Source: Candidatus Yonathbacteria bacterium
GTDB lineage: Bacteria > Patescibacteriota > Minisyncoccia > Phycocordibacterales > JACNGX01
Direction: 5' to 3'
Assembly (NCBI GenBank): GCA_013334825.1
Contig: JAAXWR010000003.1
Coordinates: 101,167-165,166, forward strand
DNA length: 64,000 nt
Position numbers and translations under genes: made by a program. Positions 8,973 to 63,643 of this stretch are shown here, piece after piece. Under the pieces are notes generated by a model. It saw nothing but the letters and a program-made list of their open reading frames with translations, had not been told where the DNA came from and did no database searches. Each line of letters opens with the position of its first letter. The first letter of the stretch is position 1.

Positions 8973-9082
8973 ATTTTCAACTAAGAACTACGAACTAAGA
9001 ACTACGAACTCTGGCACAAAGCGTATACCGCCAATGCCCCTATCTTTTCTGACAACTAAGGCCTAATCAATAACAACTCATC

Positions 9083-11302
9083 TTATCGTCCTCCAAACCG
9101 TCGGCGATGTTCTTCGGGGGATAGTCCGCCATAGCGTGGACCGTTACCGCTCGCATGGTCATGTCCTTGTGATGGGCCAGAAGGTTGCACACCTTTTCGT
9201 GTTGCATAATCAGGGTCCGCTTGTTTCAGTGACAGACGGAGTTTATTCGGATCATCAGACTCTTTAACGACGACCGGAATCATATCACCCTCTTTCACGA
9301 CATCAGCGACATTCGCGATACGAAACGGTGCGAGTTCTGATACGTGCACCAATCCTTCCGTGAATGCATTGATTTTTACCAATGCGCCAAATTCAAAGAG
9401 TTTAATCACTGTTCCCTCAAAACGTTCACCAGGAAGATATTCGCGTGTCATGTCGTGGATGATCTGTTGTGCTTTTTCTGCTGTGCCGTTCTTACCAGTG
9501 ATAAAGATCGTGCCATCATCTTCGATGTCGATTTCTTCTACACCACTATCGAGTCGTATTTTCTTTATTGTTTTCCCTGATGGTCCAATAACTTGACCAA
9601 TCTGGTCTTCAAGAACACGCATGCGAATGATACTTGGTGCGGATGCCGGGAGTGTCGCTCGTGGCGCGGGAATTGCATCCGTAATGACCTTGAGAATATG
9701 AAGCCTCGCGTCTTTTGCGCGCGCGAGTGCTTCTGTGAGTATTGCAACAGGGATACCGTCAACCTTTACGTCCATTTGAATCGCGGTAACACCCTCTGTG
9801 GTTCCTGCAACTTTAAAGTCCATATCACCATGATGATCTTCAGGACCTTGAATATCGGTGAGCACTTTATAACGAGACATATCGGACGGGTCAGACATAA
9901 GTCCAATGGCGATGCCCGCGACAGGTCTTTTAATGGGGACACCTGCATCCATGAGCGCAAGCGTTGAACCACAAACTGATGCCATGGAAGTAGAACCATT
10001 GGATGCGAGAGATTCAGAGACGATGCGAATCGTATATGGGAATGTATCTGTGTCGGGAATGACATACGAAAGTGCTTTTTCCGCGAGCGCACCATGACCA
10101 ATCATGCGACGGTTGGTACCACCCATGCGTCCTGTTTCTCCGCTTGAATAGGGAGGAAAATTGTAATGATGCATGAAACGTTTGCTCCCCTCTTGCTCTT
10201 CCATGGTATCTACAAGTTGCGCGTCTTTGGGACCACCCAAGGTAAGCGCGGAAAGCACATGTGTTCCGCCACGATAAAAGATACCTGTGCCGTGAATGGA
10301 AGGAGCAAATCCTCCTGCTTGTGCAAAAAGTGGACGCACTTCATCGAATGCACGGTTATCGGGACGCTTATTATCTTCAAGAGCACCGCGATGAAGTTCT
10401 TTGTCCGTTGCGTCTTCATAGTATGCGTCCGCGAGCGTACGAGGTTCATCGGGGAGATGTTCAGCAACAACTGCCGTCCACTCATCTTTGAGTGTATAAA
10501 TACCATCCTTCCCTGCCTTGCCGGTAAAGACTGCGAGAGAAAGTTTTGGCGCAATACGTTCAGCAAAAAGTGTTTTTCCTGCTTCGGATAATGAGGCAAG
10601 AGAAAGAACTGCTTTTTCTTTGCCGATTGTTGCAATGATATCTGTTTGAAATGCTTGAAGATGTTCGATTTCTTTTGTCGCGCGCGCGAGTGAGGAAGTG
10701 ACAATGTCTTCATGCGCCTCTGCTCCTCCCGCTTCGATCATATTGATATTGCCGTTCTTGCCACATACCGTAAGCTCAAGAAGCGCGCCTGTACGATCGG
10801 TATAGGACGGGTTGACGAGCGTGTCACTCTCGACATTTTTTTGAACAAGACGTACGGCAGATACGGGACCATGCCACGGAATACGTGAAGTCGCGAGAGC
10901 AAGTGACGCGGCGTTTACCGCAAGAATGTCGGGGTCAATGTCACCAAGTGAAAGTGTTGTGATGACAACTTGTACTTCATTGCGGATACGTTGATCAAAA
11001 AGTGGGCGAATGGTGCGATCCACGATACGTCCCGAGAGAATGGCATTGTCAGAAGGTTTTCCTTCACGACGCATGAAACGGCTTCCCAAGATTTCTCCTG
11101 CCGCGTAAAAACGTTCTTCATAATCAACGGTGAGTGGAAAAAAATCACCATCGCGTACGTTACTGGACATGACCGCGGTCGCAAGGACGACAGTGTCGCC
11201 ATAACGCAAGATAACAGAACCATCAGTTTGTTCGGCAAGATCAGAGAACTCAGCAATAAGTTTTTTTCCACCGATCTCTGTTTCAAATGTACGTGTGTGC
11301 AT
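9083..11302 (-). CDS. pnp: Polynucleotide phosphorylase (PNPase).
   Basis: Two RNase PH domains plus KH and S1 domains. Classic N-terminus (TFETEIGGKKL...) and a 739-aa length. Confidence 0.97.
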   Translation of the reverse strand: MHTRTFETEIGGKKLIAEFSDLAEQTDGSVILRYGDTVVLATAVMSSNVRDGDFFPLTVDYEERFYAAGEILGSRFMRREGKPSDNAILSGRIVDRTIRPLFDQRIRNEVQVVITTLSLGDIDPDILAVNAASLALATSRIPWHGPVSAVRLVQKNVESDTLVNPSYTDRTGALLELTVCGKNGNINMIEAGGAEAHEDIVTSSLARATKEIEHLQAFQTDIIATIGKEKAVLSLASLSEAGKTLFAERIAPKLSLAVFTGKAGKDGIYTLKDEWTAVVAEHLPDEPRTLADAYYEDATDKELHRGALEDNKRPDNRAFDEVRPLFAQAGGFAPSIHGTGIFYRGGTHVLSALTLGGPKDAQLVDTMEEQEGSKRFMHHYNFPPYSSGETGRMGGTNRRMIGHGALAEKALSYVIPDTDTFPYTIRIVSESLASNGSTSMASVCGSTLALMDAGVPIKRPVAGIAIGLMSDPSDMSRYKVLTDIQGPEDHHGDMDFKVAGTTEGVTAIQMDVKVDGIPVAILTEALARAKDARLHILKVITDAIPAPRATLPASAPSIIRMRVLEDQIGQVIGPSGKTIKKIRLDSGVEEIDIEDDGTIFITGKNGTAEKAQQIIHDMTREYLPGERFEGTVIKLFEFGALVKINAFTEGLVHVSELAPFRIANVADVVKEGDMIPVVVKESDDPNKLRLSLKQADPDYATRKGVQPSGPSQGHDHASGNGPRYGGLSPEEHRRRFGGR

Positions 11303-11662
11303 AGCATATGTCCCCTTGTCGACACATGACGGCGTTGAAAGATTTCAGTGCCGAGTATGTGGCGACGAGAGAGAAAATAGTAAATGATAAACTAAAAACG
11401 ATATAAACAAAAAACTATAAACGATAAACTTTTTATAATTAACGATATAGGACCGACTTTAAACGAGTAAATATTGATAACGCATGTCGTGGCGCGGCGC
11501 TTCGCGCCGCGCCTCCATATACAACACCCCAAGTATACCCCGCCAAAGCAGTACTATGAAAGCCCTTGATTTTTTTCTATTATCTGCTATAATATACGAG
11601 TAATGTACCTCTTTAACAAATGACCGCTAAAAAAGCGGTCGCAAAAGATAAAAGGAAAAACA

Positions 11663-12325
11663 ATGAAAAAACTTTTTATGATTTTGGTGGCCGTCATCGG
11701 CCTTGGTTTTGCTAACTCCGCCTCGGCTGAACCCGTGTCTGGTAGCCTTGGCTACCAGCATGATTATATCAGTGGCAAAAACAAGGTCTTTGAGGGTGCC
11801 CTTGTTGTGGGTTCTGCCAGCGTCCCTCTCGGCAACGGGTTCTCGGTGAACCATTGGTTCGCCTATGATCCCGACGGGAAAAAGTTTTTCGAGAGGGACT
11901 GGTCCCTCGTGAAAAAACTTTCGGCATTCGACGCGAAGGTTACAGGGTCAGCGTCGCTGAACTTGTACAACTTCGGCGCAGGGTACGGCGACCTTGCAGA
12001 GCAGGGTGACGCCGCCTCAATTGAGGCAAATGCGTCCGTTCCCGTCGCCGAAGGGGTTTCCCTTTTTGGCGGTGCGGAGAGCATCACCATCATCTCGGCT
12101 GACGGAGACTTCACCACCGCATATGCGGGAGTGAAGTTGCAGAAGGGCGGGTTCTACCTGAAACCGCGGTTGCAGGTGCAGACCAACGACAGCCCGTATG
12201 GACGTATTGACGTTGGAGGATCGATCGACGTCGGTAACGGCATTACGTTTGACCCAGCAGCCAAGGTTGTCGTGGCTGAGGACCGCAAGCCGAATTTTCA
12301 GGTTGCGGTTGAAGTTCCTTTTTGA
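11663..12325 (+). CDS. Secreted beta-rich hypothetical protein (signal peptide, Gly/Ser/Ala-rich, C-terminal Phe).
   Basis: Signal peptide MKKLFMILVAVIGLGFANSASA, an upstream TATAAT -10 box at about 11596, and a downstream terminator at 12334-12365. Confidence 0.7.
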   Translation: MKKLFMILVAVIGLGFANSASAEPVSGSLGYQHDYISGKNKVFEGALVVGSASVPLGNGFSVNHWFAYDPDGKKFFERDWSLVKKLSAFDAKVTGSASLNLYNFGAGYGDLAEQGDAASIEANASVPVAEGVSLFGGAESITIISADGDFTTAYAGVKLQKGGFYLKPRLQVQTNDSPYGRIDVGGSIDVGNGITFDPAAKVVVAEDRKPNFQVAVEVPF

Positions 12326-12607
12326 AGGAATCCATGCCGGCGCGTAACAGCGCCGGTTTTTGTTTTCTGATGTTTCTTTTATAGATATATGTTTGTTCTT
12401 TTAAACATCGAGGACATGTCTTTTCCGATTTGAGTTTATGTTCGTTTCTCTTGCATGTTATTCCTTTTTCGTATATTCTCCCCAAGAGGTGTTTTTTGAT
12501 GATAATGATAAATAAAAAGAATACACATGAAAAGATACGCATATATGTATTTGTCCCCTGAGAAACTATTGCCTGATGGAGCAAGTACAGTGAGGGGGTG
12601 TGTAGAT

Positions 12608-12907
12608 ATGAAAAGATACATACGCTTTCGTGACTTCACGGAGTGTTATGTTTATCAGAGAGATGAAAATAGGCAGAGAAACTTTGTCTGCCCGAGCTCG
12701 GAATGTTCCATCAAAAGAAAGACGGATCCGTATTTTCGTAAACGTATCCTTTCCCTCTGGCGTCCGATTACTGGGGGAGAAGGATTCGTTGCGGTGATGT
12801 GTCAAAACTGTGGCATGATTGTTGAATGGAAACGATCCACGGTGTTTGAGACGGTGAAAACATTTATCCCCAAAGGGAAAAAGATGTTTCGCCTTCCGCC
12901 TCTTTGA
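12608..12907 (+). CDS. Small zinc-ribbon protein (CPSSEC...CQNCG).
   Basis: Two Cys pairs. The called ORF runs 12527-12907 and the likely start is the internal Met MKRYIRF. A terminator follows at about 12921-12941. Confidence 0.45.
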   Translation: MKRYIRFRDFTECYVYQRDENRQRNFVCPSSECSIKRKTDPYFRKRILSLWRPITGGEGFVAVMCQNCGMIVEWKRSTVFETVKTFIPKGKKMFRLPPL

Positions 12908-29052: not shown

Positions 29053-30246
29053 ATGTCTCCTGAATCACTTATCAGACCAACGTTCGATGACCCAGCGTAT
29101 ACTCCTTTGGAAAAAGCCGCTTCTTTATTTGAAGAACATCCTGAAGAGGAAAAAACATATGCTAACCCTTCTCAGTTTGAGAAAAGACAATGGCACGAAC
29201 TGAAAACTGCCGTGGAAATGATGGCACATGATGTGAATGGATACTTGAAAGAAAAAACAGGTTTAGAGAAACCTGTGATTGATGAGTATGGGCGTATTTC
29301 CCCCGATGCGTATGCGGGAACATTTAATTTTCCTCAGAAAAAGATTGACACGGACAATACATACGTAGCAGAAAAAGAAGAAGAGTTTATGTGGCAGGCA
29401 GCATCGCATAAAGCTGGGTCAGCAAGAGAGCCGGTATATAATGCAATGACGGAATCTGACAAAGAAAAAATCGCGTATTATTACGCGACGACATATGGTG
29501 TGTCTACAACAAAAGATATGCTTGATATGTGGAGAGAGGAACGTTCGCAGGGGCTTGCTGAAGGATGGGAGATGCTTTCCACAGCTCTTTTTCATAAAGC
29601 ATTTGGGGATCGAATGATTGTGGCACGTGCGTCGGCATTTGATGATATTGCAAACGGAGTTGATACTGTAATTATTGATAAGGAAAGTGGTGATATCATT
29701 TGCGCATTTGATGAATTGCATGAAGTACAAGGTGCTGTACTGTCAGAAAAACGGAGAGAAATGAAAAGAGTTGCCATGAAGCAAAAAAATAATACAGGTG
29801 GCGTAACTCTTTCATATGGGTTTAAAAAGACACAGGCAGGATTTACTCCCACATCTATGACGCACGTCCCTGTGCTATGTCTTTCTGTTGAGACAGAACC
29901 TTTGAAGCGTATCTTGTATGGATTTTCTGCGGAAGGGAATCTTTCTGATGAGGAGCGAGTGTTTGTGTCTGATATGCTGGAGCAACTTCTTGTTGAGGCA
30001 GAACATGCCGATGATGCACTTGTGGAAGAAGGAGAACGAAGACGCGAAAGACGAAATGTGGTTATTGAAGAACGGAAACGTTTACAGTCTGGATATGGAG
30101 AGCGTAATTTTGCAAAAGAACGCGCGCTTCTTGCAGAAGAGCACACGCTGACTATGCCGATTGACGAAGCTCCTGTTACACAACGCGTGCGAAGAACAAG
30201 ACATATATTACATGCACTACTCGAAGAATTGCATGCACGTGAGTAA
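29053..30246 (+). CDS. Hypothetical protein of 397 aa, with a charged coiled-coil C-terminus.
   Basis: First gene downstream of the tRNA-Pro repeat island. No domain recognised. Confidence 0.6.
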   Translation: MSPESLIRPTFDDPAYTPLEKAASLFEEHPEEEKTYANPSQFEKRQWHELKTAVEMMAHDVNGYLKEKTGLEKPVIDEYGRISPDAYAGTFNFPQKKIDTDNTYVAEKEEEFMWQAASHKAGSAREPVYNAMTESDKEKIAYYYATTYGVSTTKDMLDMWREERSQGLAEGWEMLSTALFHKAFGDRMIVARASAFDDIANGVDTVIIDKESGDIICAFDELHEVQGAVLSEKRREMKRVAMKQKNNTGGVTLSYGFKKTQAGFTPTSMTHVPVLCLSVETEPLKRILYGFSAEGNLSDEERVFVSDMLEQLLVEAEHADDALVEEGERRRERRNVVIEERKRLQSGYGERNFAKERALLAEEHTLTMPIDEAPVTQRVRRTRHILHALLEELHARE

Positions 30247-52359: not shown

Positions 52360-52549
52360 AATAGTATGTTAGTAAGTTAGTAATTAGTATATGAGGAGAT
52401 TAAATATTAGGAGATTAAACGTGTATTTGATAGTTAATTTCCTAATTCTTAAGCTCCCTTTTGTAAAAAAGACCGGTGCTTTCGCAACGGACCTCCACGT
52501 GAGTAGTATATCAGATGTTCGAGATAAGTCAATGCGCTGTAGGAAATAG

Positions 52550-53040
52550 GTTAGAGGAGATAGGGACAGATATTCGAATCAAGCGTGCCCTGCCCCCTAC
52601 ATGGCGTGCTGTGCATCCCACGTGGTGCACAGTGCAGGGAATCACGAAGCACGAATCAAGAAGAAAAACGATAGACGATGAAATAAGAAATATGAAGTTA
52701 GAAATATGGGGTTACGAAGTACGAATGAGTATGAACATACGAAACGGGACGGGAATTAAGAATACAAGACGAGAATTAAGAATAAGGAATTAAGAATCAA
52801 GAATACGGACGGACTGGAAATGAGGAGTAGGAATATGAAGAGGAAACTATAAAAAATTAAAGGTTAAAAAGAAAAAACTATAGACAATGAAATAAGAAAT
52901 ATGAAGACGAAAACTATAAACGAGAGACAATGAAATAAGAAAATAGAAATAAGGAATATGGGAAGAGAAAACTATAAACGATAAAAAAGAAGTCGTATTC
53001 GTATATTGTACACATTCGTTATTCGTAATCTTCGTAAGTG
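52550..53040 (+). repeat. Intergenic repeat cluster of about 490 bp: REP-like palindromes (gtgccctgccccctacatggcgtgctgtgcatcccacgtggtgcacagtgcaggg) followed by degenerate GAAATA/AAGAAT/ACTATAAAC low-complexity repeats.
   Basis: It is related to the 14195-14520 cluster (shared cgaatcaagcgtgccctg...gggaatcacgaagcacgaatcaagaa). Confidence 0.65.
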
Positions 53041-53047
53041 TTCTTGA

Positions 53048-53095
53048 AATGGGTCCGCTTCGCTCTTCCGTAACGGAGACGTCACGGGAAACTCG
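53048..53095 (+). repeat. Element copy C (ggtccgcttcgctcttccgtaacggagacgtcacgggaaactcgtg), lacking the large palindrome.
   Basis: It shares the small hairpin and the gagacgtc(g/a)cgggaaact tail with copies A and B. It lies about 190 bp upstream of pilB. Confidence 0.55.
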
Positions 53096-53238
53096 TGAAC
53101 TCGTTTTTTTTGACACTCGACAATCATCAATCTGTTTCTTACATTCATTTCACTATTTTTTATGTGCCCTGTTATGTTTCGCGTTTGTTTATGCACAGAA
53201 TATAGTTCCGCACAGTAGACGGGTATCTGATATACTAT

Positions 53239-55008
53239 ATGTATATAATTTATATGCGCGTAGACGAAGGACAACTGAAAACATTTATTGCGGATTCTGG
53301 GCTTGTTTCTGCGAAAGAAATTGATGCTGCGGCAGAGAAAGCACGAAAAGCAAAAAAGACATTTAAAGAAACTCTCCTCGCTGACGGAATATTGTCCGAG
53401 GATGATTTTCGTCGTATGGAAGCACACGTTCTTGGTATTCCGTTTGTTAGTTTGAAAAATCTCAAAATTGAATATGAACTTCTCTCTCTTATTCCAGAAC
53501 CAATTGCTCGGCGACATAATATTATTGGATTTAAAAAAGGAGATGGGGTACTTGAGGTGGCAATGCTTGATACGGATGATCTTACGGCAATTGATTTTGT
53601 AAAGAAAAAAGTAGGACTTAAGATTCTTCCTCGTTTGACAGACAAAGCATCTATTAAAAGTGCTCTTTTGCAGTATCAAAAAAATCTTAAAGCAGAATTT
53701 GGAGATATTATAAAAGAAGAGGCGGAATCATTAAAAACCATTGCGGAAAGTAAAGAGGGAGAACATCTTTCCGAAGGGGATTTAAAGAAGTTGGCGGAAG
53801 ATTTGCCTGTTGTAAAGATTGTGGATTCGCTCCTTCGTCATGCTATTGTACAAAATGCATCTGATATTCATATTGAACCACAGGAAAAAGAGCTTATTGT
53901 TCGCTATCGAATTGACGGAATTTTGCACGACGCAATGGTACTTCCAAAAGCCGCCGGACCTGGCGTTACTGCGCGTATCAAAGTATTATCAAACCTTAAG
54001 CTTGATGAAAAACGATTACCTCAAGATGGTCGTTTCAAAATTGAAGAAAATGAGGAGAAGGTTTCATTTCGTGTCTCGACAATTCCCACAGCATTTGGTG
54101 AAAAGACTGTGATGAGACTTCTCAGGGAGCGTACATCTGGGTTTACACTTGAGACTCTTGGTTTTCATGGTCAGGGGCTTGAATATATTCGTGAATCAAC
54201 GCGTCAAAAAACGGGTATGATTCTCGTGACGGGACCTACCGGTTCAGGGAAAACGACGACACTGTATACTGTTCTTGATATCTTGAATACCCCTGAGGTA
54301 AATATTTCGACAATAGAGGATCCGATCGAGTATCAAGTTGCACGCGTTAATCAAACACAAGTAAAACCTGATATCGGATTTACTTTTTCCAATGGTCTTC
54401 GTGCTCTTGTGCGCCAAGACCCAGACGTTATTCTTGTGGGTGAAATTCGTGATACTGAAACAGCAAGCCTTGCAGTAAACGCATCGTTGACAGGGCATGT
54501 TGTACTTTCAACACTGCACACTAATTCTGCGGGAGGTACGATTCCACGATTACTTGATATGGGTATTGAACCGTTTCTTCTTGTTTCGACAGTCAATGTT
54601 GTCATCGCACAACGTCTTGTTCGTAAATTGTGTTCTGGAAAAGAAAAATATTTTTTGACAAAAGCTGAAATATCTCAACTTGAGAAACATGCAAATCTCG
54701 ATCTAGTTCTCGGAGAACTCAAAGAAGAAGGTGTTGTCGAAGCAAAAGCAACATGGGAAAAGATTCCATTTTATAAACCGAAAAAAACCCCTCAATGTGA
54801 AAGTGGCTATACTGGACGTGTGGGTATCCATGAAATTATGCATATGTCATCTCCACTACGTGAATTAGTTATGCGCGGAACAACATCCCAAGAAATCGAG
54901 ACACAAGCAAAGAAAGAAGGCATGATGACGATGCTTGAAGACGGTATATTTAAAGCGGCACAGGGGGTGACAACGATAGAGGAAGTATTGCGCGTAGTAT
55001 CAGAGTAG
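53239..55008 (+). CDS. pilB: Type IV pilus assembly ATPase PilB (GspE family).
   Basis: N-terminal T2SSE_N domain, Walker A GPTGSGKTTTLY, Asp/His boxes and a tetra-Cys-like region. Confidence 0.93.
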   Translation: MYIIYMRVDEGQLKTFIADSGLVSAKEIDAAAEKARKAKKTFKETLLADGILSEDDFRRMEAHVLGIPFVSLKNLKIEYELLSLIPEPIARRHNIIGFKKGDGVLEVAMLDTDDLTAIDFVKKKVGLKILPRLTDKASIKSALLQYQKNLKAEFGDIIKEEAESLKTIAESKEGEHLSEGDLKKLAEDLPVVKIVDSLLRHAIVQNASDIHIEPQEKELIVRYRIDGILHDAMVLPKAAGPGVTARIKVLSNLKLDEKRLPQDGRFKIEENEEKVSFRVSTIPTAFGEKTVMRLLRERTSGFTLETLGFHGQGLEYIRESTRQKTGMILVTGPTGSGKTTTLYTVLDILNTPEVNISTIEDPIEYQVARVNQTQVKPDIGFTFSNGLRALVRQDPDVILVGEIRDTETASLAVNASLTGHVVLSTLHTNSAGGTIPRLLDMGIEPFLLVSTVNVVIAQRLVRKLCSGKEKYFLTKAEISQLEKHANLDLVLGELKEEGVVEAKATWEKIPFYKPKKTPQCESGYTGRVGIHEIMHMSSPLRELVMRGTTSQEIETQAKKEGMMTMLEDGIFKAAQGVTTIEEVLRVVSE

Positions 55009-55201: not shown

Positions 55202-56419
55202 ATGCGTTTTTCTTATATTATTATTACAAAAGATGGCGAACGAAAAAAAGGAAATGCTGTTGCAACAGATAAATATGATCTCGCACACCGCTTTAAAGAA
55301 GAAGGGTCGACACTAGTTGCAGCAAAGGAGGAGCGGGTCAATTTCTTTCATGCAATTGCGCGTCTTCAGTTATTTTCAAATGTATCTGTTGAAGAGCGTA
55401 TTAATTTTGCACACAATCTTTCTTCTATGATACGTGCGGGGTTACCATTATCACGCGCACTTTCTATTATGGAAAGGCAGACAAAAAATGAAACATTCAA
55501 ACGAGTACTTGAATCACTTATGTCTCGTATCAAAGAGGGAGGAGATTTGTCAGGAGGACTCGCTATGTTTCCAGGAGTATTTTCTCCGCTTTTTGTATCT
55601 ATGGTTCATGCCGGTGAAGAATCGGGCAATCTTGCATCTGCACTTGAAATTGTTGGTATGCAAATAAAAAAGAATAATGATATCGTCAAAAAAGTAAAGG
55701 GTGCCATGATTTATCCGTCCATTGTTATATCTGTCATGGTTGTGGTTGGTATCGTTATGATTATGAAAGTTGTTCCAACGCTGACTTCTACATTTGTTGA
55801 ACTTAATGTCGAGCTTCCTTTTGCAACACAAGTTCTCATTGGTCTTTCGAACGGGCTGAGAGCATATGCACTAATTATTTTTCCAGTCATCGCACTTCTT
55901 GTTGGACTTGTTGTTGCGTATACGAAGACAGACAACGGACGATATGTAAAAGACGCTATAGTATTACATGTCCCTATTGTGTCTAGTATTGTAAAACAAC
56001 TGAACACAGCGCGCACAGCGAGGACGCTCTCTTCACTTCTTTCCGCAGGTGTAGATATAGTTGAAGCAATGAACATTACGCGTGATGTGGTACAAAATGT
56101 ACACTTTAAAAAAATCATTGCGCACACTGGAGAGAGTATTCAAAAAGGAGTGCCATTATCAAAGACGTTTTCGACAGAAGATGCACTTGCTTGTTATCCG
56201 CTTCTTTTTTCTGAGATGATTGCAGTGGGTGAGGAAACAGGCAAGCTTGCGGATATGCTTGAAGAGAATGCGCTTTTTTTTGAAGGTGAAGTCGAAGAAG
56301 CGACAAAAAATATGTCGACCATTGTTGAACCAGTGCTCATGCTCATTGTTGGTGTTGCTGTTGGATTTTTTGCTATGGCCATGATTGCTCCGATGTATAG
56401 TGTTATGAGCGGGGTATAA
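55202..56419 (+). CDS. pilC: Type IV pilus inner-membrane platform protein PilC (GspF family).
   Basis: Two T2SSF repeats with 3 TM helices, 405 aa. Confidence 0.9.
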   Translation: MRFSYIIITKDGERKKGNAVATDKYDLAHRFKEEGSTLVAAKEERVNFFHAIARLQLFSNVSVEERINFAHNLSSMIRAGLPLSRALSIMERQTKNETFKRVLESLMSRIKEGGDLSGGLAMFPGVFSPLFVSMVHAGEESGNLASALEIVGMQIKKNNDIVKKVKGAMIYPSIVISVMVVVGIVMIMKVVPTLTSTFVELNVELPFATQVLIGLSNGLRAYALIIFPVIALLVGLVVAYTKTDNGRYVKDAIVLHVPIVSSIVKQLNTARTARTLSSLLSAGVDIVEAMNITRDVVQNVHFKKIIAHTGESIQKGVPLSKTFSTEDALACYPLLFSEMIAVGEETGKLADMLEENALFFEGEVEEATKNMSTIVEPVLMLIVGVAVGFFAMAMIAPMYSVMSGV

Positions 56420-56481: not shown

Positions 56482-58251
56482 ATGTCCATTTTCTTTTTGC
56501 AACAACATATATATGTTAACCGTGTCGCATCACATCGACGTGGTTTCTCTCTTATTGATATCGTTGTTGGTACTGCACTTTTTTTACTTGTATTTGTATC
56601 AATTGCGGGTGTATTTCGTTTAAGTGTTGCATTGGTTGCAGAAAGTAAGGCGCGTATCGGAGCTCTTTCACTTGCACAAGAAACAGTGGAATTTGTTCGT
56701 AGTATGTCATATGGCGATGTTGGTGTTGTGGGAGGTATCCCTGCAGGGGAATTACCCCAATCAGAAACAATTACGATGAATGGTGTTTCGTATACGCGGA
56801 GAATACTCGTTCTTTATGATGATAATCCTGCAGACGGAGTTGGTGATGATGATGAAAATGGTATTACGACTGATAATAAACGTTTTTCCGTGAGTGTTTC
56901 ATGGGAATCACGGGGAATGTCTCGTTCTGTGCGTTTAGTGTCCACTATTGTTCCTCAGGGAATTGAAACAAGTGCAGGAGGAGGGACTCTTATTGTGAAT
57001 GTTGCAGATGCTTCCCTTTATCCTCTTGCAGACGTGACAGTGCATATAGAGAATGCATCAGTATCTCCTTCTGTTTCAATGGATGTTTTTACGAATAGTC
57101 AGGGAAGAGTTATGGTAGATGGTGCACCATCTGCTGGAGAATATGAAATAGTTGTTTCAAAAGATGGTTATTCTACTGTTCGTACATATGATGTCTCAGA
57201 AGAACTTTCTGCTCCATCTCCTGGACATGCATCAATCCTTGAAGGACAAAGCACTGTGGTGAGTTTTCAAACTGATCGTGTTTCTTCTCTGAATATATAT
57301 ACACGTAAACCACTTGAACCATGGAGTCTTGAAGATATGCTTGAGGATAGTAATCTTCTTGCTGCTACAACAGGTGTCACTGTTTCTGGGGGACATGCCA
57401 CGCTTGCCAGTAATGGTATGGGCGGACATGTCCTTACCGGGACGGTTCTTTCAAACACTATTGCTCCTTCATATTTATCATCATGGGAATCTTTTGATTG
57501 GGATGCGTTAGAACCGGTGGGTACATCAATCGTGTGGCATGTGTATGAAGAAAACGGAGGAAATCCCGTATTGTTATCCGAAGAAGTATTACCTGGAAAC
57601 ACAGAAGGATTTACGTCTGGACCGATTAATATCTCGAGTGTTTCTGCTAGTTTGTATCCAAAACTTCGTATTGGGGCTGAGTTCTCTACAAATAATGAGG
57701 TTTATACTCCCACTCTTTATGATTGGTCGCTCTCAACAATTGTTGGACCTGTTCCTTTAGGGGATGTTCCTTTTACGATAGTGGGAAGAAAAACAAAAGG
57801 AACAGATGACGGTATTCCTGTTTCGATTATTGAACGTAATGAGATAACAAATAGTGCAGGATTTTTCTCTGTTGGGGATTTATTGTGGGATATGTATGAT
57901 ATTGTTACAGGGGGGGCATATGATATTGCTGATTCATGTGTCCCTGATCCTTATAATCTTGCTCCCGACGAACATCCAGACGTGTCACTTATTGTAGTAC
58001 CGCATACAGCTCACTCTTTACGTATTTCTGTGTTTGGAAATGGTGATGTCCCGCTTGAGGGTGCGTCAGTACGAGTGAATGGTGTCGGATATGATGAGAC
58101 CATAGTTTCTTCTTCGTGCGGGCAAGTATTTTTTGTGCTTCCAGGGAGCGGAACATATACCTATACTATTTCAGCAACCGGATATGAGGTATTGTCAGAG
58201 ACTGTATCAGTTTCTGGGACGGTGACTCTTTCAAAATCGTTGGACCATTGA
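56482..58251 (+). CDS. Large prepilin-like (class III signal) minor pilin with carboxypeptidase-regulatory-like beta-sandwich domains.
   Basis: N-terminal RRGFSLIDIVVGTALFLLVFVSIAG prepilin cleavage/methylation motif. It is followed by TLIVNVADASLYPLADVTVHI...EYEIVVSKDGYSTV repeats. Confidence 0.7.
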   Translation: MSIFFLQQHIYVNRVASHRRGFSLIDIVVGTALFLLVFVSIAGVFRLSVALVAESKARIGALSLAQETVEFVRSMSYGDVGVVGGIPAGELPQSETITMNGVSYTRRILVLYDDNPADGVGDDDENGITTDNKRFSVSVSWESRGMSRSVRLVSTIVPQGIETSAGGGTLIVNVADASLYPLADVTVHIENASVSPSVSMDVFTNSQGRVMVDGAPSAGEYEIVVSKDGYSTVRTYDVSEELSAPSPGHASILEGQSTVVSFQTDRVSSLNIYTRKPLEPWSLEDMLEDSNLLAATTGVTVSGGHATLASNGMGGHVLTGTVLSNTIAPSYLSSWESFDWDALEPVGTSIVWHVYEENGGNPVLLSEEVLPGNTEGFTSGPINISSVSASLYPKLRIGAEFSTNNEVYTPTLYDWSLSTIVGPVPLGDVPFTIVGRKTKGTDDGIPVSIIERNEITNSAGFFSVGDLLWDMYDIVTGGAYDIADSCVPDPYNLAPDEHPDVSLIVVPHTAHSLRISVFGNGDVPLEGASVRVNGVGYDETIVSSSCGQVFFVLPGSGTYTYTISATGYEVLSETVSVSGTVTLSKSLDH

Positions 58252-58892
58252 TGACTTTTGTATTTATGACACTATTTTTTTTGTATTCTATGCGAGCCAT
58301 GCATCATTCAAGAGGGTTAAGTATTGTAGAAACTATTGTTACTGTTGCGGCAGCGACAGTTGTGCTTATTGGGTTGATATCGTTCGTTCTCTCATTGTAT
58401 AGGACAAATATATATGCAGTTGAACAATCTTTTGCTATTAACAGTGCTCGGCGTGGCATCGAACGTATGGTACGTGACATGCGTGAAGCGACGTATTCTG
58501 ATGAAGGAGCTTTTCCTATTATTTTTGCAAGTCCGTATGAATTTTATTTTTACAGTGATGTTGATAGAGATGATAATGTAGAACGTGTTAGATTTTATAT
58601 TGAAAATGGGTTACTGAAACGCGCGCAAACAAAAGCAGTAGGTATACCGCCCACTTATCCAGGAAACGCGGATACAACATCTCTTGTTTCTGATCATGTG
58701 CGCAATGTTGTGAACACCATACCTATGTTTCGATATTATGATACGGCGGGAAATGAAGTAAGTAATCTTTCTCATGTTACTGACATTGCTTTTGTTGTTG
58801 TACATATGATTGTGGATATTAATCCATACCGTCTCCCAAATGATTTTGTATTGCAATCGAGTGCGTCACTACGAAATCTTTCTGAAAATTAA
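58248..58892 (+). CDS. Prepilin-type minor pilin / pseudopilin.
   Basis: SRGLSIVETIVTVAAATVVLIGLISFVL N-terminal motif. Its ATGA overlaps the upstream gene, which implies an operon. Confidence 0.7.
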   Translation: MMTFVFMTLFFLYSMRAMHHSRGLSIVETIVTVAAATVVLIGLISFVLSLYRTNIYAVEQSFAINSARRGIERMVRDMREATYSDEGAFPIIFASPYEFYFYSDVDRDDNVERVRFYIENGLLKRAQTKAVGIPPTYPGNADTTSLVSDHVRNVVNTIPMFRYYDTAGNEVSNLSHVTDIAFVVVHMIVDINPYRLPNDFVLQSSASLRNLSEN

Positions 58893-58895
58893 AAA

Positions 58896-60362
58896 ATGCT
58901 TTCGTTGCATGTTGGTTTCACGGTATACTTATATATATTATTTATGAAATTTATTTTTTCGTATGCAAAAAGAAACATAGGATATGTCTCAATGTTTGTT
59001 GTTGTGTTTGGAGGTGTATTTTTGACTATAATGTCAGGAATGGTTGGTTTTATTTCTTTACAAAAAAAAGCAACAGAGAGCAAAGAAGCAGGTGAGAGTG
59101 CAATTCAAATTGCTGAAGCAGGGCTTGATTATTATCGGTGGCACTTGGCACATTATCCCAATGATATGCAAGATGGCACAGGAGTTTCTGGCCCGTATAC
59201 ACATGAGTATTATGATCCTGAAGGAGGTCTTATGGGAAGTTACACGCTTGATATATCGGGGAACGTTGCTTGTGGTACGTTGACGTCTGTTGAGGTGCGT
59301 TCAACTGGAAGAACGGTCACCTATCCTCATATTGAAAGAACAACATATGGGAAATATGCACGTCCGTCTGTTGCTGAATATGCATATATTGTAAATGACA
59401 ATGTGTGGGCAGGAGATGATCGTGTGATTCTTGGGCGTTACCATGCAAATGGCGGTATTCGTATGGATGGAACAAATCAATCTCTTGTTACATCGGGTGT
59501 TTCTACATGGTCATGCACAGCTTCATTTGGCTGTAATCCAACACGGACAAAAGCAGGTATTTTTGGTGACGGATCAGGAAGTGCCTTATGGGAATATCCA
59601 GCAGAAACAGTTGATTTTACAGGGTTAGCGCTTAATCTTGGAAATTTGAAAACATCAGTTCAGAATGGAGGAGGATTGTATTTTAGTGTGCAGTCGACAC
59701 AGTGGAATACGCTTGGATACCATTTACTTTTTAATGCAAATGGTACAGTGACAGTGTATCGAGTGACACGAACAGATGATATACAAAGTTATACAACAGA
59801 AGAAGGATGGGAATATTTAGATGAGACAATTGATAGACAAAGTTTAGTAGGGACATACACAATTCCTTCGGGGTGTTCAGTTATCTACGTAGAAGATAAT
59901 GTGTGGATAGAAGGGACTGTACGAGGGAAAGTTACTCTTATTGCTGCTAATACTGTAATATCAAATATTGATGCGAACGTATATCTCATTGATGATATAC
60001 TGTATACGACACCTGATGGTTCAGACGGACTTACGATTGTGGGTGAAAATGATGTACTTATTCCCTATGATGTCCCGTATAACATGGACTTACATGGAGT
60101 ATTTATTGCGCAAAAGGGGAGGTTTGGACGTAATCATTATGACCATGGTTCAAGAGATATACGGGGAATTTTGACGATGCATGGAAGCACTGTATCGTTT
60201 AAGCGTGTGGGGACAAAATGGATGAGTGGAAACACACATATATCTGGTTTTGTTGAGCGCTATGATTCATATGATAGAAAACTTGCAACCGATGCGCCAC
60301 CATTTACTCCCTATGTCGATGACGAATATCGGTTTGTTGAATGGCGTGAAATGGACAAATGA
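58896..60362 (+). CDS. PilX-like pilus-associated protein (N-terminal hydrophobic anchor).
   Basis: N-terminal NIGYVSMFVVVFGGVFLTIMSGMVGF resembles PilX N-terminal domains. It is followed by a large extracellular region. Confidence 0.5.
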   Translation: MLSLHVGFTVYLYILFMKFIFSYAKRNIGYVSMFVVVFGGVFLTIMSGMVGFISLQKKATESKEAGESAIQIAEAGLDYYRWHLAHYPNDMQDGTGVSGPYTHEYYDPEGGLMGSYTLDISGNVACGTLTSVEVRSTGRTVTYPHIERTTYGKYARPSVAEYAYIVNDNVWAGDDRVILGRYHANGGIRMDGTNQSLVTSGVSTWSCTASFGCNPTRTKAGIFGDGSGSALWEYPAETVDFTGLALNLGNLKTSVQNGGGLYFSVQSTQWNTLGYHLLFNANGTVTVYRVTRTDDIQSYTTEEGWEYLDETIDRQSLVGTYTIPSGCSVIYVEDNVWIEGTVRGKVTLIAANTVISNIDANVYLIDDILYTTPDGSDGLTIVGENDVLIPYDVPYNMDLHGVFIAQKGRFGRNHYDHGSRDIRGILTMHGSTVSFKRVGTKWMSGNTHISGFVERYDSYDRKLATDAPPFTPYVDDEYRFVEWREMDK

Positions 60363-60413: not shown

Positions 60414-61505
60414 ATGCACATGCGAATACTGAGTATGTTTCGAAATATATATACAATCGTCATTGTGATGACGATTATATTGTGGTCAGGAGGAGTTTTT
60501 GCAAAAGAAACGGGGAGTATTCCTCTTAAGTCTGACACTCCATCTTCATCCTCTTCATCATACGAACTTCTTGAGCCTTCGCTTATTGGTGGAACAGAAA
60601 CGACTAACGCTTCAAACTATTTTGAAACAATATATGTATATGCTATTGGTGCCGCAGGTGTCCTCGCTGTTCTCATGTTTGCAATCGGTGGCATTCAGTA
60701 TATGTTCGGTGGCGCAAACCCCGCATCAAAGTCAAAAGGTGTCGCGCATATGTCCAATGCCGTATGGGGTATTATTCTTGCTCTCTCCGCGTATCTTATT
60801 TTGAATACTATCAATCCTGATTTGGTAGATTTACAAGTGACACTTCCTGAGGCGAGTATTGATGCGGAATATGCTCCTCCGCCTGCTGGAGATGTAGGAG
60901 AAAGTACTTCTGATATTCCTTCTACTGTTCCCACCGCCCTTCCTTCAGGGTGTAAAAATTATGTTGCCACGTTCAAGTCAATTGCGTCATCGACGGGCGT
61001 AAGCGGGTGTTTGCTATATGGTATTGCTTCTCAAGAATCTGGATGCAATCCAAATGCACAGAGTTCTTCAGGAGCGTGTGGTATGATGCAATTTTTACCA
61101 AAAACAGCAGGACAGAGTTGTGATTGGCTCAAAACACATCCAGAAGGAAGTATTTCACTTGCGGCACAGTATCTTTCGAGAAGTCGAAATGCTCTTGCGC
61201 GATATACAATGTTTAATATTGGAAGTAGATATACACAATCGAATACATCTGTTACTGTCGGTTCATATATTTACGATGCGGGAAACGACGATCTTATTGC
61301 TTCGTATAATGCAGGATATGGTACCAAATCAAGTAATGGAGGAAAGGGACCGTTTGCAGTTTCTGATTCATGTGCGTCCCGTAATGGAACGATTCCCGTG
61401 TGGCAATGTGATATAAACACTGCAGGATATGCACAAACACGCAATTATGTTCGTCGCGTTCAAACATATCAAGATCAGTGTGAATCATCAGGGGTACTGA
61501 AATAA
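60414..61505 (+). CDS. Secreted two-TM (VirB2/TrbC-like hairpin) module fused to a lytic transglycosylase (SLT) domain.
   Basis: Signal peptide. The module ...FETIYVYAIGAAGVLAVLMFAIGGIQYMFGGANPASKSKG...AVWGIILALSAYLILNTINP can be compared with VirB2 AIGISWMFGRASLG. The C-terminal SLT motifs are QESGCNPNAQSSSGACGMMQF and YNAG. Confidence 0.7.
   Translation: MHMRILSMFRNIYTIVIVMTIILWSGGVFAKETGSIPLKSDTPSSSSSSYELLEPSLIGGTETTNASNYFETIYVYAIGAAGVLAVLMFAIGGIQYMFGGANPASKSKGVAHMSNAVWGIILALSAYLILNTINPDLVDLQVTLPEASIDAEYAPPPAGDVGESTSDIPSTVPTALPSGCKNYVATFKSIASSTGVSGCLLYGIASQESGCNPNAQSSSGACGMMQFLPKTAGQSCDWLKTHPEGSISLAAQYLSRSRNALARYTMFNIGSRYTQSNTSVTVGSYIYDAGNDDLIASYNAGYGTKSSNGGKGPFAVSDSCASRNGTIPVWQCDINTAGYAQTRNYVRRVQTYQDQCESSGVLK
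60528..60869 (+). repeat. 342-bp segment duplicated at about 61890-62231 (about 99.7% identical, 1 mismatch seen). It encodes the shared N-terminal module of the two hydrolase paralogs.
   Basis: Direct comparison of the two DNA segments gave a single C/T difference. Confidence 0.85.
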
Positions 61506-61553
61506 GATATGATTTGTATTTAGATATTTTATTATTTAATTATAGTTACTTTT

Positions 61554-62750
61554 ATGTTGCGAACCCATCTTTCTGTTTTTTTCTCCGGGCTGATTGCATG
61601 TTTGTTTTTTTTACCCGGTATTCTTTCTGCCGCAATTGTTTGGGAATTATATGACGTGTCTTCGAAGGCAACACTTGGAACGTATGATTCGTATACACAA
61701 TGTGATATTGCGCGTTCTTCTCGAAATATGGCTGGAGGAAATACCTCTTGTCGTTCTGTCAATACGCCAATTACTCCTGGTGAATCGTCATTATCGAATA
61801 TGCAAACAGAATTAGAAGACGCATTAGGTGAAAGCGCGAGAGTCAATTTGATATCTGAGCAACAGAAGACAAGTGGAGATACCGATCTCAAGTCTGACAC
61901 TCCATCTTCATCCTCTTCATCATATGAACTTCTTGAGCCTTCGCTTATTGGTGGAACAGAAACGACTAACGCTTCAAACTATTTTGAAACAATATATGTA
62001 TATGCTATTGGTGCCGCAGGTGTCCTCGCTGTTCTCATGTTTGCAATCGGTGGCATTCAGTATATGTTCGGTGGCGCAAACCCCGCATCAAAGTCAAAAG
62101 GTGTCGCGCATATGTCCAATGCCGTATGGGGTATTATTCTTGCTCTCTCCGCGTATCTTATTTTGAATACTATCAATCCTGATTTGGTAGATTTACAAGT
62201 GACACTTCCTGAGGCGAGTATTGATGCGGAAGAAGGAGAAGATTATGACGCAGAAGCGCCTACGGAAGCGGCTGGGTATTCTCCCACAGAAACAAACTCT
62301 TCAGGAGGTGGGTCATGTGGAGGTATGGTTGTTACTTCTGCAGTTCAGACGCAGTGTTCTTTGGCATCATCCGCGCTTTCAAGCATGCTTTCATGTATGC
62401 ATGCACGAGGTGTGACAGCGACTGTTACATCACTTACGTCAAGTAGAGTAGGGTCTGATCTTAGTGCATCACGTGCATGCTGTGGAAATGCAAGTTGTGT
62501 GCATGCGACGAACAGTTGTCATTACGGATGTGAGTACGGCTCATTTGCAGGAGAGCCAGGGTATTCTCATGCGGTGGATATTGCTATCAATGGTATGTCA
62601 CAAACAGAGTGGTGTGCTATCGCGAGTGCGGCGAAAAGTTGTGGGTCAGGAACAATATGGGGACCTGCGGATGCGTGTTCTGGTGCGGTCAAATATTGGG
62701 AAGGACATGGGACGCATTTACATGTAAGTACACGAAGTTGTAATCACTAG
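61554..62750 (+). CDS. Paralog carrying the same two-TM module fused to a Cys-rich M15-like (Hedgehog/DD-peptidase fold) zinc peptidase domain.
   Basis: The N-terminal 114 aa are identical to those of 60414-61505. The C-terminal ...SHAVDIAING...EGHGTHLHV is consistent with the H-x6-D / H-x-H zinc site of M15 peptidases. It has many Cys residues. Confidence 0.6.
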   Translation: MLRTHLSVFFSGLIACLFFLPGILSAAIVWELYDVSSKATLGTYDSYTQCDIARSSRNMAGGNTSCRSVNTPITPGESSLSNMQTELEDALGESARVNLISEQQKTSGDTDLKSDTPSSSSSSYELLEPSLIGGTETTNASNYFETIYVYAIGAAGVLAVLMFAIGGIQYMFGGANPASKSKGVAHMSNAVWGIILALSAYLILNTINPDLVDLQVTLPEASIDAEEGEDYDAEAPTEAAGYSPTETNSSGGGSCGGMVVTSAVQTQCSLASSALSSMLSCMHARGVTATVTSLTSSRVGSDLSASRACCGNASCVHATNSCHYGCEYGSFAGEPGYSHAVDIAINGMSQTEWCAIASAAKSCGSGTIWGPADACSGAVKYWEGHGTHLHVSTRSCNH

Positions 62751-62782
62751 ATTTTTTACACAGCACCAAGCACTCACCGTAG

Positions 62783-63643
62783 GTGGGTGCTTTTGTATTG
62801 AGAAAGAAATTTTTGCGCAGAGAAGTCTTGGAGTGGTATACTACAGACATGCAGACACCCACTTCTCCACAAGTAAAACGTCTTGTCGTCGCGAATTGGA
62901 AAATGAATCCAGAGACAAAAAAAGAAGCAGAAATGCTCGCGCGCATGTCTGTTAAGATTGGTACAGGATTGAAACGTTCAGAATTGGTGATATGTCCGCC
63001 GTTTCCTTTTCTTGGGCTCTCCGCGTATATGCGTATGCCAAAAAGTATTTCACTTGGTGTGCAAGATGTATACCCTGAGCGCGCGGGTGCGCGCACGGGA
63101 GAAGTATCACTTTCCATGGTCAAAGACATGAAAGCACGGTACGTTATTGTGGGACATTCGGAGCGTCGCGCGGGAGGAGAGACTGATGCATTGGTATCCA
63201 AGAAAGCGCGCGCGGTTATTGCTGCTGGTATGCGTCCGATTGTATGTGTTGGCGAAACATCACGCGATGGCGATGCGAAGTATTTACGCATACTTCGTGA
63301 ACAGCTTCTTGAATCTCTTGCGGGCATTTCAAAAAACAATGCAAGTACGCTTATCGTTGCATATGAACCAGTATGGGCAGTGGGAGCATCTGTCGCCGAT
63401 GACCCGCATGAAACAGCGGAAACGATACTTTTTATACGAAAGACGCTTGCCGATATGTTTTCTGAGCGTATTGCGCTTACCATTCCTATTCTCTATGGAG
63501 GAGCGGTATCTGATAAAAACGCCGCGGCATTTCTCGCCCATGCTGGTGTACAAGGGCTTCTCCTTGGTCGTTCAGGACGTGACAGCAAACAGCTCGCAGG
63601 TATTATAAAAGCTTCTGAACTCACACCGTTTCCTCAGATATGA
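62783..63643 (+). CDS. tpiA: Triosephosphate isomerase.
   Basis: VVANWKMN, catalytic IVGHSERR and a AYEPVWAVG motif. The likely start is M at about 62849. Confidence 0.93.
   Translation: MGAFVLRKKFLRREVLEWYTTDMQTPTSPQVKRLVVANWKMNPETKKEAEMLARMSVKIGTGLKRSELVICPPFPFLGLSAYMRMPKSISLGVQDVYPERAGARTGEVSLSMVKDMKARYVIVGHSERRAGGETDALVSKKARAVIAAGMRPIVCVGETSRDGDAKYLRILREQLLESLAGISKNNASTLIVAYEPVWAVGASVADDPHETAETILFIRKTLADMFSERIALTIPILYGGAVSDKNAAAFLAHAGVQGLLLGRSGRDSKQLAGIIKASELTPFPQI

Follow-up and report, generated by a model that had tools for sequence, protein, structure and literature searches.

Two adjacent genes of a Candidatus Yonathbacteria genome, here called A and B, each join a VirB2-like pilin hairpin to a different predicted cell-wall enzyme, and the DNA encoding the two hairpins is nearly identical. 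The genes lie head to tail on the forward strand of a 64-kb stretch of contig JAAXWR010000003.1 (assembly GCA_013334825.1, a short-read metagenome-assembled genome, MAG); this whole stretch of 64,000 nucleotides is referred to below as the window. The features that define the pair are as follows.

60414-61505, forward strand: gene A, 363 amino acids (signal peptide, VirB2-like hairpin, linker, SLT domain)
61554-62750, forward strand: gene B, 398 amino acids (signal peptide, N-terminal extension, VirB2-like hairpin, acidic linker, Cys-rich LAS-fold domain)
60528-60869, forward strand: shared module, copy 1 (gene A residues 39-152)
61890-62231, forward strand: shared module, copy 2 (gene B residues 113-226)

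The original prediction described tandem genes with a 5' segment about 99.7% identical, and a base-by-base comparison at an offset of 1362 confirms it: the two copies form a 342-bp direct repeat that agrees at 341 positions and is in frame in both genes, yielding 114 identical residues. The sole mismatch, C at 60563 against T at 61925, is synonymous (TAC/TAT, Tyr). Identity is lost sharply at both edges of the repeat, a repeat finder recovered the same family, and the match is far beyond chance. A tblastn search with the module found no third copy in the 64-kb window. The product of gene B is identical to a hypothetical protein from another Candidatus Yonathbacteria MAG (GCA_013335985.1, contig JAAXUO010000001.1), and the product of gene A matches the neighbour of that protein, which is annotated as a lytic transglycosylase.

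The shared module is a VirB2-like pilin hairpin

The module consists of an LLEPS motif, a first helix, a Lys-rich loop (GGANPASKSKG), a second helix and a TINPDL motif. It had been predicted to be VirB2/TrbC-like, which holds for one of the two relevant Pfam families: T4SS_pilin (PF18895) matches A and B with 31.3 and 31.1 bits, above its gathering score of 26.6, whereas TrbC/VirB2 (PF04956) reaches 20.8 and 21.7 bits, below its gathering score of 27.9. Like PF18895 proteins, A and B have a signal peptide and two hydrophobic helices separated by a short basic loop. Hydropathy segments of A fall at residues 12-30, 73-91 and 115-133, with the signal peptide at about residues 1-30, and AlphaFold2 models the module as a helix-loop-helix with helices at module residues 18-50 and 55-85. 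Free-standing pilins of the Candidate Phyla Radiation (CPR; 115-190 amino acids) are 36-47% identical to the module and have a common pattern with it (LLxP...GGxQY...K-rich loop...LNTINPDL). Two other traits of the family are missing from the pair. Its small free-standing members (about 100-190 amino acids) end soon after NPDL, while 210 residues follow the hairpin in A and 172 in B, and proximity to virB4 is absent from the window and present in the relatives L006, L007, L010, L038 and L039 (L numbers denote the loci compared).

Similarity to classical VirB2 is more distant. A profile search of the PDB with CPR pilins returned only Agrobacterium VirB2 (8cue and 8exh), weakly (E 0.18 and 0.3), and six related family members also match TrbC/VirB2 (best E 2e-23). 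A Foldseek search of the PDB with the hairpin model was non-specific, giving generic helical hairpins, all at E > 0.7, with an archaeal conjugation pilin at rank 15. The 37 candidates scored in a homologue search with the 104-residue module were all short pilins, and A and B were not recovered. By sequence, the module is a member of the CPR VirB2-like pilin family, and a remote homology to classical VirB2 is plausible. Because the loop is basic and both flanks are acidic, the positive-inside rule would place the loop in the cytoplasm and the C-terminal enzyme outside.

A and B carry different cell-wall enzyme domains

Outside the module, three further parts of the proteins can be delimited.

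60975-61334, forward strand: SLT domain of A, residues 188-307 (Pfam PF01464, E 2.4e-14)
62310-62747, forward strand: LAS-fold (Hedgehog/DD-peptidase) domain of B, about residues 253-398
61632-61889, forward strand: N-terminal extension of B, residues 27-112, after the signal peptide (about residues 1-26), with two cysteines and no Pfam match

The C-terminus of A was correctly called a lytic transglycosylase. The SLT match scores 53.3 bits against a gathering score of 21.3, and direct reading finds QES with the putative catalytic E208, GMMQ at residue 223 and YNAG at residue 298. A linker of about 35 residues, rich in P, S and T, separates this domain from the hairpin. The C-terminus of B, which had been predicted to be a Cys-rich, M15-like zinc peptidase domain, has the Hedgehog/DD-peptidase (LAS) fold at fold level and falls in no Pfam M15 family. 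Its family-invariant residues are H317, C322, H323, Y324, G325, A340, D342, H388 and H390, together with further conserved cysteines, and H323, D342, H388 and H390 are invariant in 14 homologs of the domain. A is thus a predicted glycan cutter, and B a predicted cutter of peptide stems or cross-links.

Hairpins evolve in concert within each genome

Paralogous fusions with identical or near-identical hairpins within a genome occur in eight other assemblies. Identities between paralogous hairpins are as follows; L006, L013 and L015 are the more distant loci of this comparison.

Window: 99.7% of nucleotides
L002 (three paralogs): 94.7-99.6% of nucleotides
L004: 99.7% of nucleotides
L005: 99.7% of nucleotides
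L014: 100% over 306 nucleotides
L006 (three paralogs): a 66-codon DNA-identical core without a synonymous difference, with diverged flanks
L013: 88% of amino acids
L015: 94% of amino acids, over the 50 available

Between genomes, the hairpins are 34-71% identical at the amino acid level, a divergence similar to that of the orthologous SLT (56-77%) and LAS (49-65%) domains. Recombination or gene conversion of the module, as originally proposed, accounts for this contrast with the DNA-level identity within genomes. Selection alone was considered as a cause and is ruled out, since synonymous sites are identical as well. Free-standing pilins do not follow the same pattern: their arrays in L016, L017 and L037 have a median amino acid identity of 38-41%, and published patescibacterial pilin arrays average 25%, with a maximum of 54% (PMC12102498). 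The divergence of the free arrays indicates that homogenisation is specific to the enzyme fusions. On these comparisons, we conclude that the hairpins evolve in concert through gene conversion that recurs independently in each lineage. In the Moraniibacteriota loci L016 (873-3715) and L017 (1124-4160), a gene with an SLT match and no detected hairpin is followed by six to seven free-standing pilin genes; the last gene of these arrays encodes a double-hairpin protein, and pairwise identities range from 16 to 92%.

Enzyme domains are exchanged at conserved positions

The first gene of Yonathbacteria-like arrays is always an SLT fusion, orthologous and constant in position. In the second gene, the window, L002 and L003 have a LAS-like domain, and L004, L005 and L014 have an M15-type domain (SHxNGYKxD...HWD). 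Treating these two C-terminal domains as one family was tried and rejected (hhalign probability 5.6%), and they are regarded here as distinct cassettes. L002 has a third tandem paralog (10001-10924, P0008), in which the same hairpin carries another Cys-rich C-terminal domain without a Pfam match, and L013 pairs SLT with a DUF2272/CHAP-type domain. The suspected exchange of C-terminal domains is therefore seen among related genomes, and in each tandem array SLT is accompanied by a peptidase or an amidase, which is LAS-like, M15-type or DUF2272/CHAP. That every array joins a glycan cutter to a peptide or amide cutter suggests the logic of wall-opening enzymes rather than toxin diversification. 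The N-terminal extension of B is homologous to that of the M15-type fusions in L004 (L004_2) and L014 (E 1e-9), where it is apparently duplicated, and this homology marks gene B as a mosaic whose parts were reassorted at the hairpin.

In four more distant CPR loci, genes for PrgI, a TraC-like protein and VirB4 are immediately followed by a constant slot in which the fusion lies between two orthologous partner genes of about 320 and 440 amino acids; the enzyme of the fusion varies.

L007: partner genes at 8995-9996 and 11225-12484, fusion with a LAS domain
L010: partner genes at 9042-9995 and 11449-12771, fusion with a LAS domain
L038: partner genes at 9052-10014 and 11439-12794, fusion with a VanY domain
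L039: partner genes at 9028-10023 and 11050-12384, fusion with an NlpC/P60 domain

Three fusions lie downstream of VirB4 in L006, near dnaA. An orthologous slot after virB4 that is filled with varying enzymes indicates that a pilin-hairpin peptidoglycan peptidase is a conserved component of type IV secretion system (T4SS) clusters and that its catalytic domain is replaceable. The ~320-residue partner in the virB4 clusters is secreted and has faint Ig-like matches; the ~440-residue partner has an N-terminal transmembrane segment and a faint PQQ/BamB-like match. The partner of about 380-450 amino acids also stands beside the fusion in L006, L013 and L009, and it is absent next to A and B in the window.

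The fusions form a large and apparently undescribed group

A search with the module returned 16,086 representative clusters at E <= 0.001. Among the best 150 representatives, 28 are free-standing proteins, 98 extend by 100 or more residues at the C-terminus and 24 have two to five hairpins per chain, fractions that apply to this sample, which is biased toward relatives of a fusion protein, and not to the whole family. Pfam recognises SLT in 12 of 106 extended proteins, M15_4 in four, VanY in two, and YkuD, M23, NlpC/P60 and M15 in one each; it leaves most of the extensions unassigned. The multi-hairpin proteins (for example P0079, P0080, P0081, P0082 and P0102) often carry a further C-terminal extension and resemble "pilins" that are joined covalently in series.

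VirB2-like pilins, pilin arrays and VirB1-like hydrolases have already been published for Patescibacteria (PMC12102498, PMC10633639, PMC12857230). The main texts of PMC12102498 and PMC10633639 do not mention pilin-hydrolase fusions, and a full-text literature search with incomplete journal coverage found no mention of such fusions or of their concerted evolution. In agreement with the first impression that the arrangement was not a described one, it is apparently widespread in the CPR and undescribed.

Genomic context of the pair

Upstream of A lies a same-strand cluster of pilus assembly genes, and B is followed by a possible terminator.

53239-55008, forward strand: pilB-type assembly ATPase, first gene of the cluster (Pfam T2SSE E 3.5e-127, MshEN E 3.9e-13)
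55202-56419, forward strand: pilC-type platform protein (Pfam T2SSF E 5.6e-51)
56482-58251, forward strand: pilin-like gene
58248-58892, forward strand: pilin-like gene
58896-60362, forward strand: pilin-like gene
62768-62792, forward strand: terminator-like hairpin (11 pairs, then a T-run), directly 3' of the B stop codon and before tpiA

The presence of type IV pilus genes had been predicted, and Pfam supports it well for pilB and pilC. For the three prepilin-like genes, two have prepilin-type N-termini when their translations are read by eye (RRG/FSLIDIVV and SRG/LSIVETIV), and profile matches are weak (ComGE E 0.008, prepilin-type domain E 0.22). By BLAST, the three proteins show no relationship to the partner genes that flank fusions in T4SS clusters. 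Gaps of 51 nucleotides before A and 48 between A and B, the common strand, and the lack of a terminator-like site in the short gaps between 60362 and 61554 suggest that the pair probably shares the transcript of the pilB-pilC-pilin cluster. A promoter scan at the locus gave hit counts no higher than in shuffled sequence and is not used as evidence; Rfam and tRNA scans found nothing near the two genes.

The placement of the fusions within a pilus operon is a property of one lineage. L002, L004, L005 and L014 have the full order nusA, pilB, pilC, three genes, fusions, tpiA and pgk, while L003, a 3.8-kb contig, holds the 3' end only (a cut SLT-fusion gene, the LAS-like fusion, tpiA and pgk). The proposed pilus context is thus repeated at four further full loci of the Yonathbacteria-like lineage, but it is absent in distant CPR, where the fusion lies in the virB4 (T4SS) cluster.

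Several other features of the window can be recorded. Between nusA and pilB, about 0.9 kb (52360-53238) has no convincing open reading frame and no Rfam match in an otherwise compact genome; this gap is about 380 bp in L002 and L005. At 111-1364 lies a gene for a cell-wall hydrolase with LysM and Peptidase_M23 domains (E 7e-31) and no pilin hairpin. Two large open reading frames, 6750-8267 (reverse strand, 505 amino acids) and 29053-30246 (forward strand, 397 amino acids), have no Pfam match at E <= 1e-5.

A proposed role in opening the cell wall

Patescibacteria, or CPR bacteria, are ultra-small obligate epibionts. In the cultivated saccharibacterium Southlakia epibionticum, a T4SS, an array of VirB2-like pilins and type IV pili are reported to be essential for the epibiotic lifestyle (PMC10633639, PMC12857230). 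We favor, with moderate confidence, the reading that A and B are VirB1-like wall-opening enzymes, one a glycan cutter and one a peptide cutter, that are tethered by a VirB2 hairpin and belong to an envelope-spanning machine. Both proteins would be exported by Sec as peptidoglycan hydrolases, and the two-helix T4SS_pilin hairpin would hold each enzyme at the outer face of the cytoplasmic membrane, with the Lys-rich loop toward the cytoplasm and the acidic N-flank, the flexible linker and the enzyme outside. A would cut glycan strands and B, as a Cys-rich LAS-fold zinc peptidase, would cut peptide stems or cross-links, so that the two could jointly open the wall at the site of the machine, splitting a VirB1-like job over two polypeptides with one type of anchor. 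The fusion may ancestrally have been part of the CPR T4SS cluster, given that it sits at a constant position immediately behind virB4 in most of the CPR lineages sampled, and in the Yonathbacteria-like lineage the pair would have been placed at the 3' end of the pilB-pilC-pilin cluster. Recurrent gene conversion would keep the hairpin DNA alike, and the same stretch of homology may serve as a hinge for the exchange of enzyme domains from lineage to lineage.

Several observations weigh against this reading. First, a single transmembrane helix would suffice as an anchor, and an anchor-only role fails to explain both the use of a pilin-family hairpin and its homogenisation in every genome. Second, neither virB4 nor any other T4SS gene was found in the 64-kb window, where the large open reading frames elsewhere are housekeeping genes and none is VirB4-like; any T4SS link of A and B in their own genome would therefore be indirect. 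The assembly that encodes the B-identical protein, GCA_013335985.1, is nevertheless listed among the VirB4-positive genomes by Quinonero-Coronel et al. 2025 (PMC12102498, Table S1). In a search with the VirB4 of L007, each of the best 120 matches had about 77% identity, and the MAG of the window was not among their labels. Third, the whole neighborhood is syntenic in the Yonathbacteria-like lineage (nusA ... tpiA, pgk, recJ), and the link to the pilus rests on adjacency. Fourth, the LAS-like domain of B has no Pfam match at E <= 1, a profile search of PDB sequences with the alignment of this domain gave no match at E <= 10, and its His-Asp spacing (H323-x18-D342) includes an insertion relative to the canonical H-x3-6-D. 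Finally, the predicted topology is based on hydropathy and the positive-inside rule, and read collapse in a short-read MAG could have removed a few real single-nucleotide polymorphisms within the repeat, so that the identity may be overstated.

Alternative explanations

A first alternative, which we regard as possible if tentative, is that A and B are enzyme-bearing pilus subunits. The hairpins would be extracted by VirB4 and polymerise, and a VirB2-type filament or stub would display SLT and peptidase heads that drill through the wall of the host and of the epibiont itself; the hairpins would then have to be identical because one polymer interface is common to them. Both pilin termini lie on the outer surface of the pilus in conjugative pilus structures, so that C-terminal cargo is geometrically possible. 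The module belongs fully to the pilin family and is close to free-standing pilins; a free-standing pilin whose gene lies 3 kb upstream of the L013 fusions shares 64-67% identity with their hairpins. That fusions are homogenised while free pilin arrays diverge is what would be expected if the fusions fit one lattice, and the two to five hairpins per chain in 24 of the best 150 representatives suggest side-by-side packing. The fixed slot of the fusion next to virB4 points the same way, as do reports that epibiotic growth requires pilin arrays and the T4SS (PMC10633639, PMC12857230). However, no free-standing pilin lies within 10 kb of the fusions in L006, L007 and L010, no virB4 lies near the pair in the window, and a filament built solely of subunits with 17-25 kDa heads is sterically doubtful. 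The fold search with the hairpin was non-specific, and no pilus has yet been seen for any CPR T4SS.

A related and more speculative proposal, which we consider rather doubtful, is a self-drilling conduit: a short VirB2-type T4SS filament with enzyme heads on some or all of its subunits that bores through the walls of both epibiont and host. If this were true, the polymer interface would be kept identical by gene conversion, the enzyme heads would be exchanged to suit the peptidoglycan chemistry of the host, and the apparent absence of VirB1 from most CPR genomes with VirB2 homologues would be explained.

A and B could also be housekeeping autolysins for growth and division, with a pilin-derived hairpin as a generic anchor and a meaningless adjacency to pilus or T4SS genes. 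In the compact and syntenic genomes of the CPR, adjacency is weak evidence of function; the LAS fusion of the Moranbacteria loci L008 and L009 is near neither virB4 nor pilB; and the window has, at another place, a gene for an ordinary LysM-M23 hydrolase. We find the explanation unlikely, because the orthologous slot after virB4 is kept in four genomes while the enzyme domain is replaced, which points to selection on location together with function. Moreover, the L009 fusion still lies beside the ~380-residue partner gene found in T4SS clusters, and the anchor family is otherwise linked to T4SSs (PMC12102498).

The original prediction leaned toward a polymorphic effector or toxin locus, in which a conserved N-terminal delivery module carries exchangeable C-terminal "warheads" against competitors. 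Peptidoglycan hydrolases are common antibacterial effectors, and the locus does have a constant N-terminal module with variable C-termini, recombination at the module, and cassette content that varies between related genomes. Other properties make this framing very improbable. There is no candidate immunity gene, as A and B are separated by 48 nucleotides and followed by the terminator-like hairpin and tpiA. A tblastn search of the window with the module and all known cassettes found only A and B, hence neither the orphan C-terminal cassettes that had been suggested as a check nor fragments of the module. Across genomes, the SLT members are orthologs that stay at one position, the set always consists of one glycan cutter and one peptide cutter, and the domains are predicted to be membrane-tethered rather than released.

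A mis-assembly that made or homogenised the duplicate module was a danger raised at the outset; in a short-read MAG, an exact 342-bp repeat exceeds usual k-mers and bubble-popping can delete polymorphisms. This explanation is hardly credible, since the same architecture with shared hairpins recurs in eight additional, independently made assemblies that come from different projects (NCBI, ENA, TARA and NIOZ), the flanks of both copies are unique and in frame on each side, and differences between copies survive both in assemblies such as L002 and L013 and, as one mismatch, in the window itself.

Comparison with known systems

Specialised lytic transglycosylases are encoded in pilus, flagellar and secretion operons, among them PilT of the R64 thin pilus, BfpH, EtgA and FlgJ. 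A resembles them as an SLT-type enzyme within the operon of a wall-spanning machine, presumably for a local gap. Such enzymes are soluble, of lipoprotein type, or fused to rod proteins, and we know of none with a VirB2-like hairpin or with a peptidase paralog that has the same N-terminus. Polymorphic toxin systems (Rhs, CDI and LXG) likewise join a conserved N-terminal module to exchangeable C-termini, but in the window A and B are accompanied by neither immunity genes nor orphan cassettes. In Neisseria pilE/pilS, gene conversion with silent copies acts on a pilin gene; conversion at A and B homogenises the pilin part instead of diversifying it.

The closest functional parallel is with the VirB1-like hydrolases of Gram-positive bacteria, which are membrane-anchored, pair an SLT or muramidase domain for glycan cleavage with a CHAP, NlpC/P60 or LytM peptidase, are encoded in T4SS clusters and open the wall (PMC12102498, PMC12857230). 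Like PrgK of pCF10, TraG of pIP501 and CwlT of ICEBs1, A and B would place an extracytoplasmic peptidoglycan-hydrolase domain on a membrane anchor, if the predicted topology is right, and the fusions of CPR relatives occupy a comparable T4SS-cluster position right after virB4. The pair differs in having its glycosidase and peptidase on separate polypeptides, in using a VirB2-family two-helix hairpin in place of a plain N-terminal transmembrane segment, in the homogenisation of that anchor between paralogs, and in its location in a pilB/pilC cluster rather than a T4SS cluster; sequence comparison to PrgK, TraG and CwlT is limited to SLT.

The patescibacterial VirB2-like pilin arrays (Wang et al. 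2023, PMC10633639; PMC12102498) are tandem genes of the same family (PF18895) from the same group of organisms, and GCA_013335985.1 is part of the PMC12102498 dataset. The published arrays consist of small divergent pilins, whereas the A and B hairpins are identical in DNA but for one mismatch and each carries a predicted cell-wall enzyme of 20-25 kDa. Among LAS metallopeptidases (M15 VanX/VanY and DD-carboxypeptidase, M74 MepA, phage L-Ala-D-Glu endolysins and the Hedgehog N-domain), the B domain stands apart through its lack of a sequence match in Pfam and the PDB, its ~12 cysteines, and an insertion of 8-19 residues in its family that splits the canonical SxHxxGxAxD motif. It appears to form a family of its own, largely attached to pilin hairpins.

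Implications for the CPR

The fusions are concrete candidates for the missing VirB1 function in CPR bacteria, and fusions scored as "VirB2" could explain why that function appears to be lacking. Many "pilin" genes close to A and B, judged by the biased sample of the best 150 representatives, are really fusions of a pilin hairpin with a cell-wall enzyme. These proteins would also add a LAS-type peptidase family that is invisible to Pfam. With anchors homogenised and enzyme heads swapped, the arrays amount to a natural experiment that hints at where a fit to a partner is required and where adaptation occurs.

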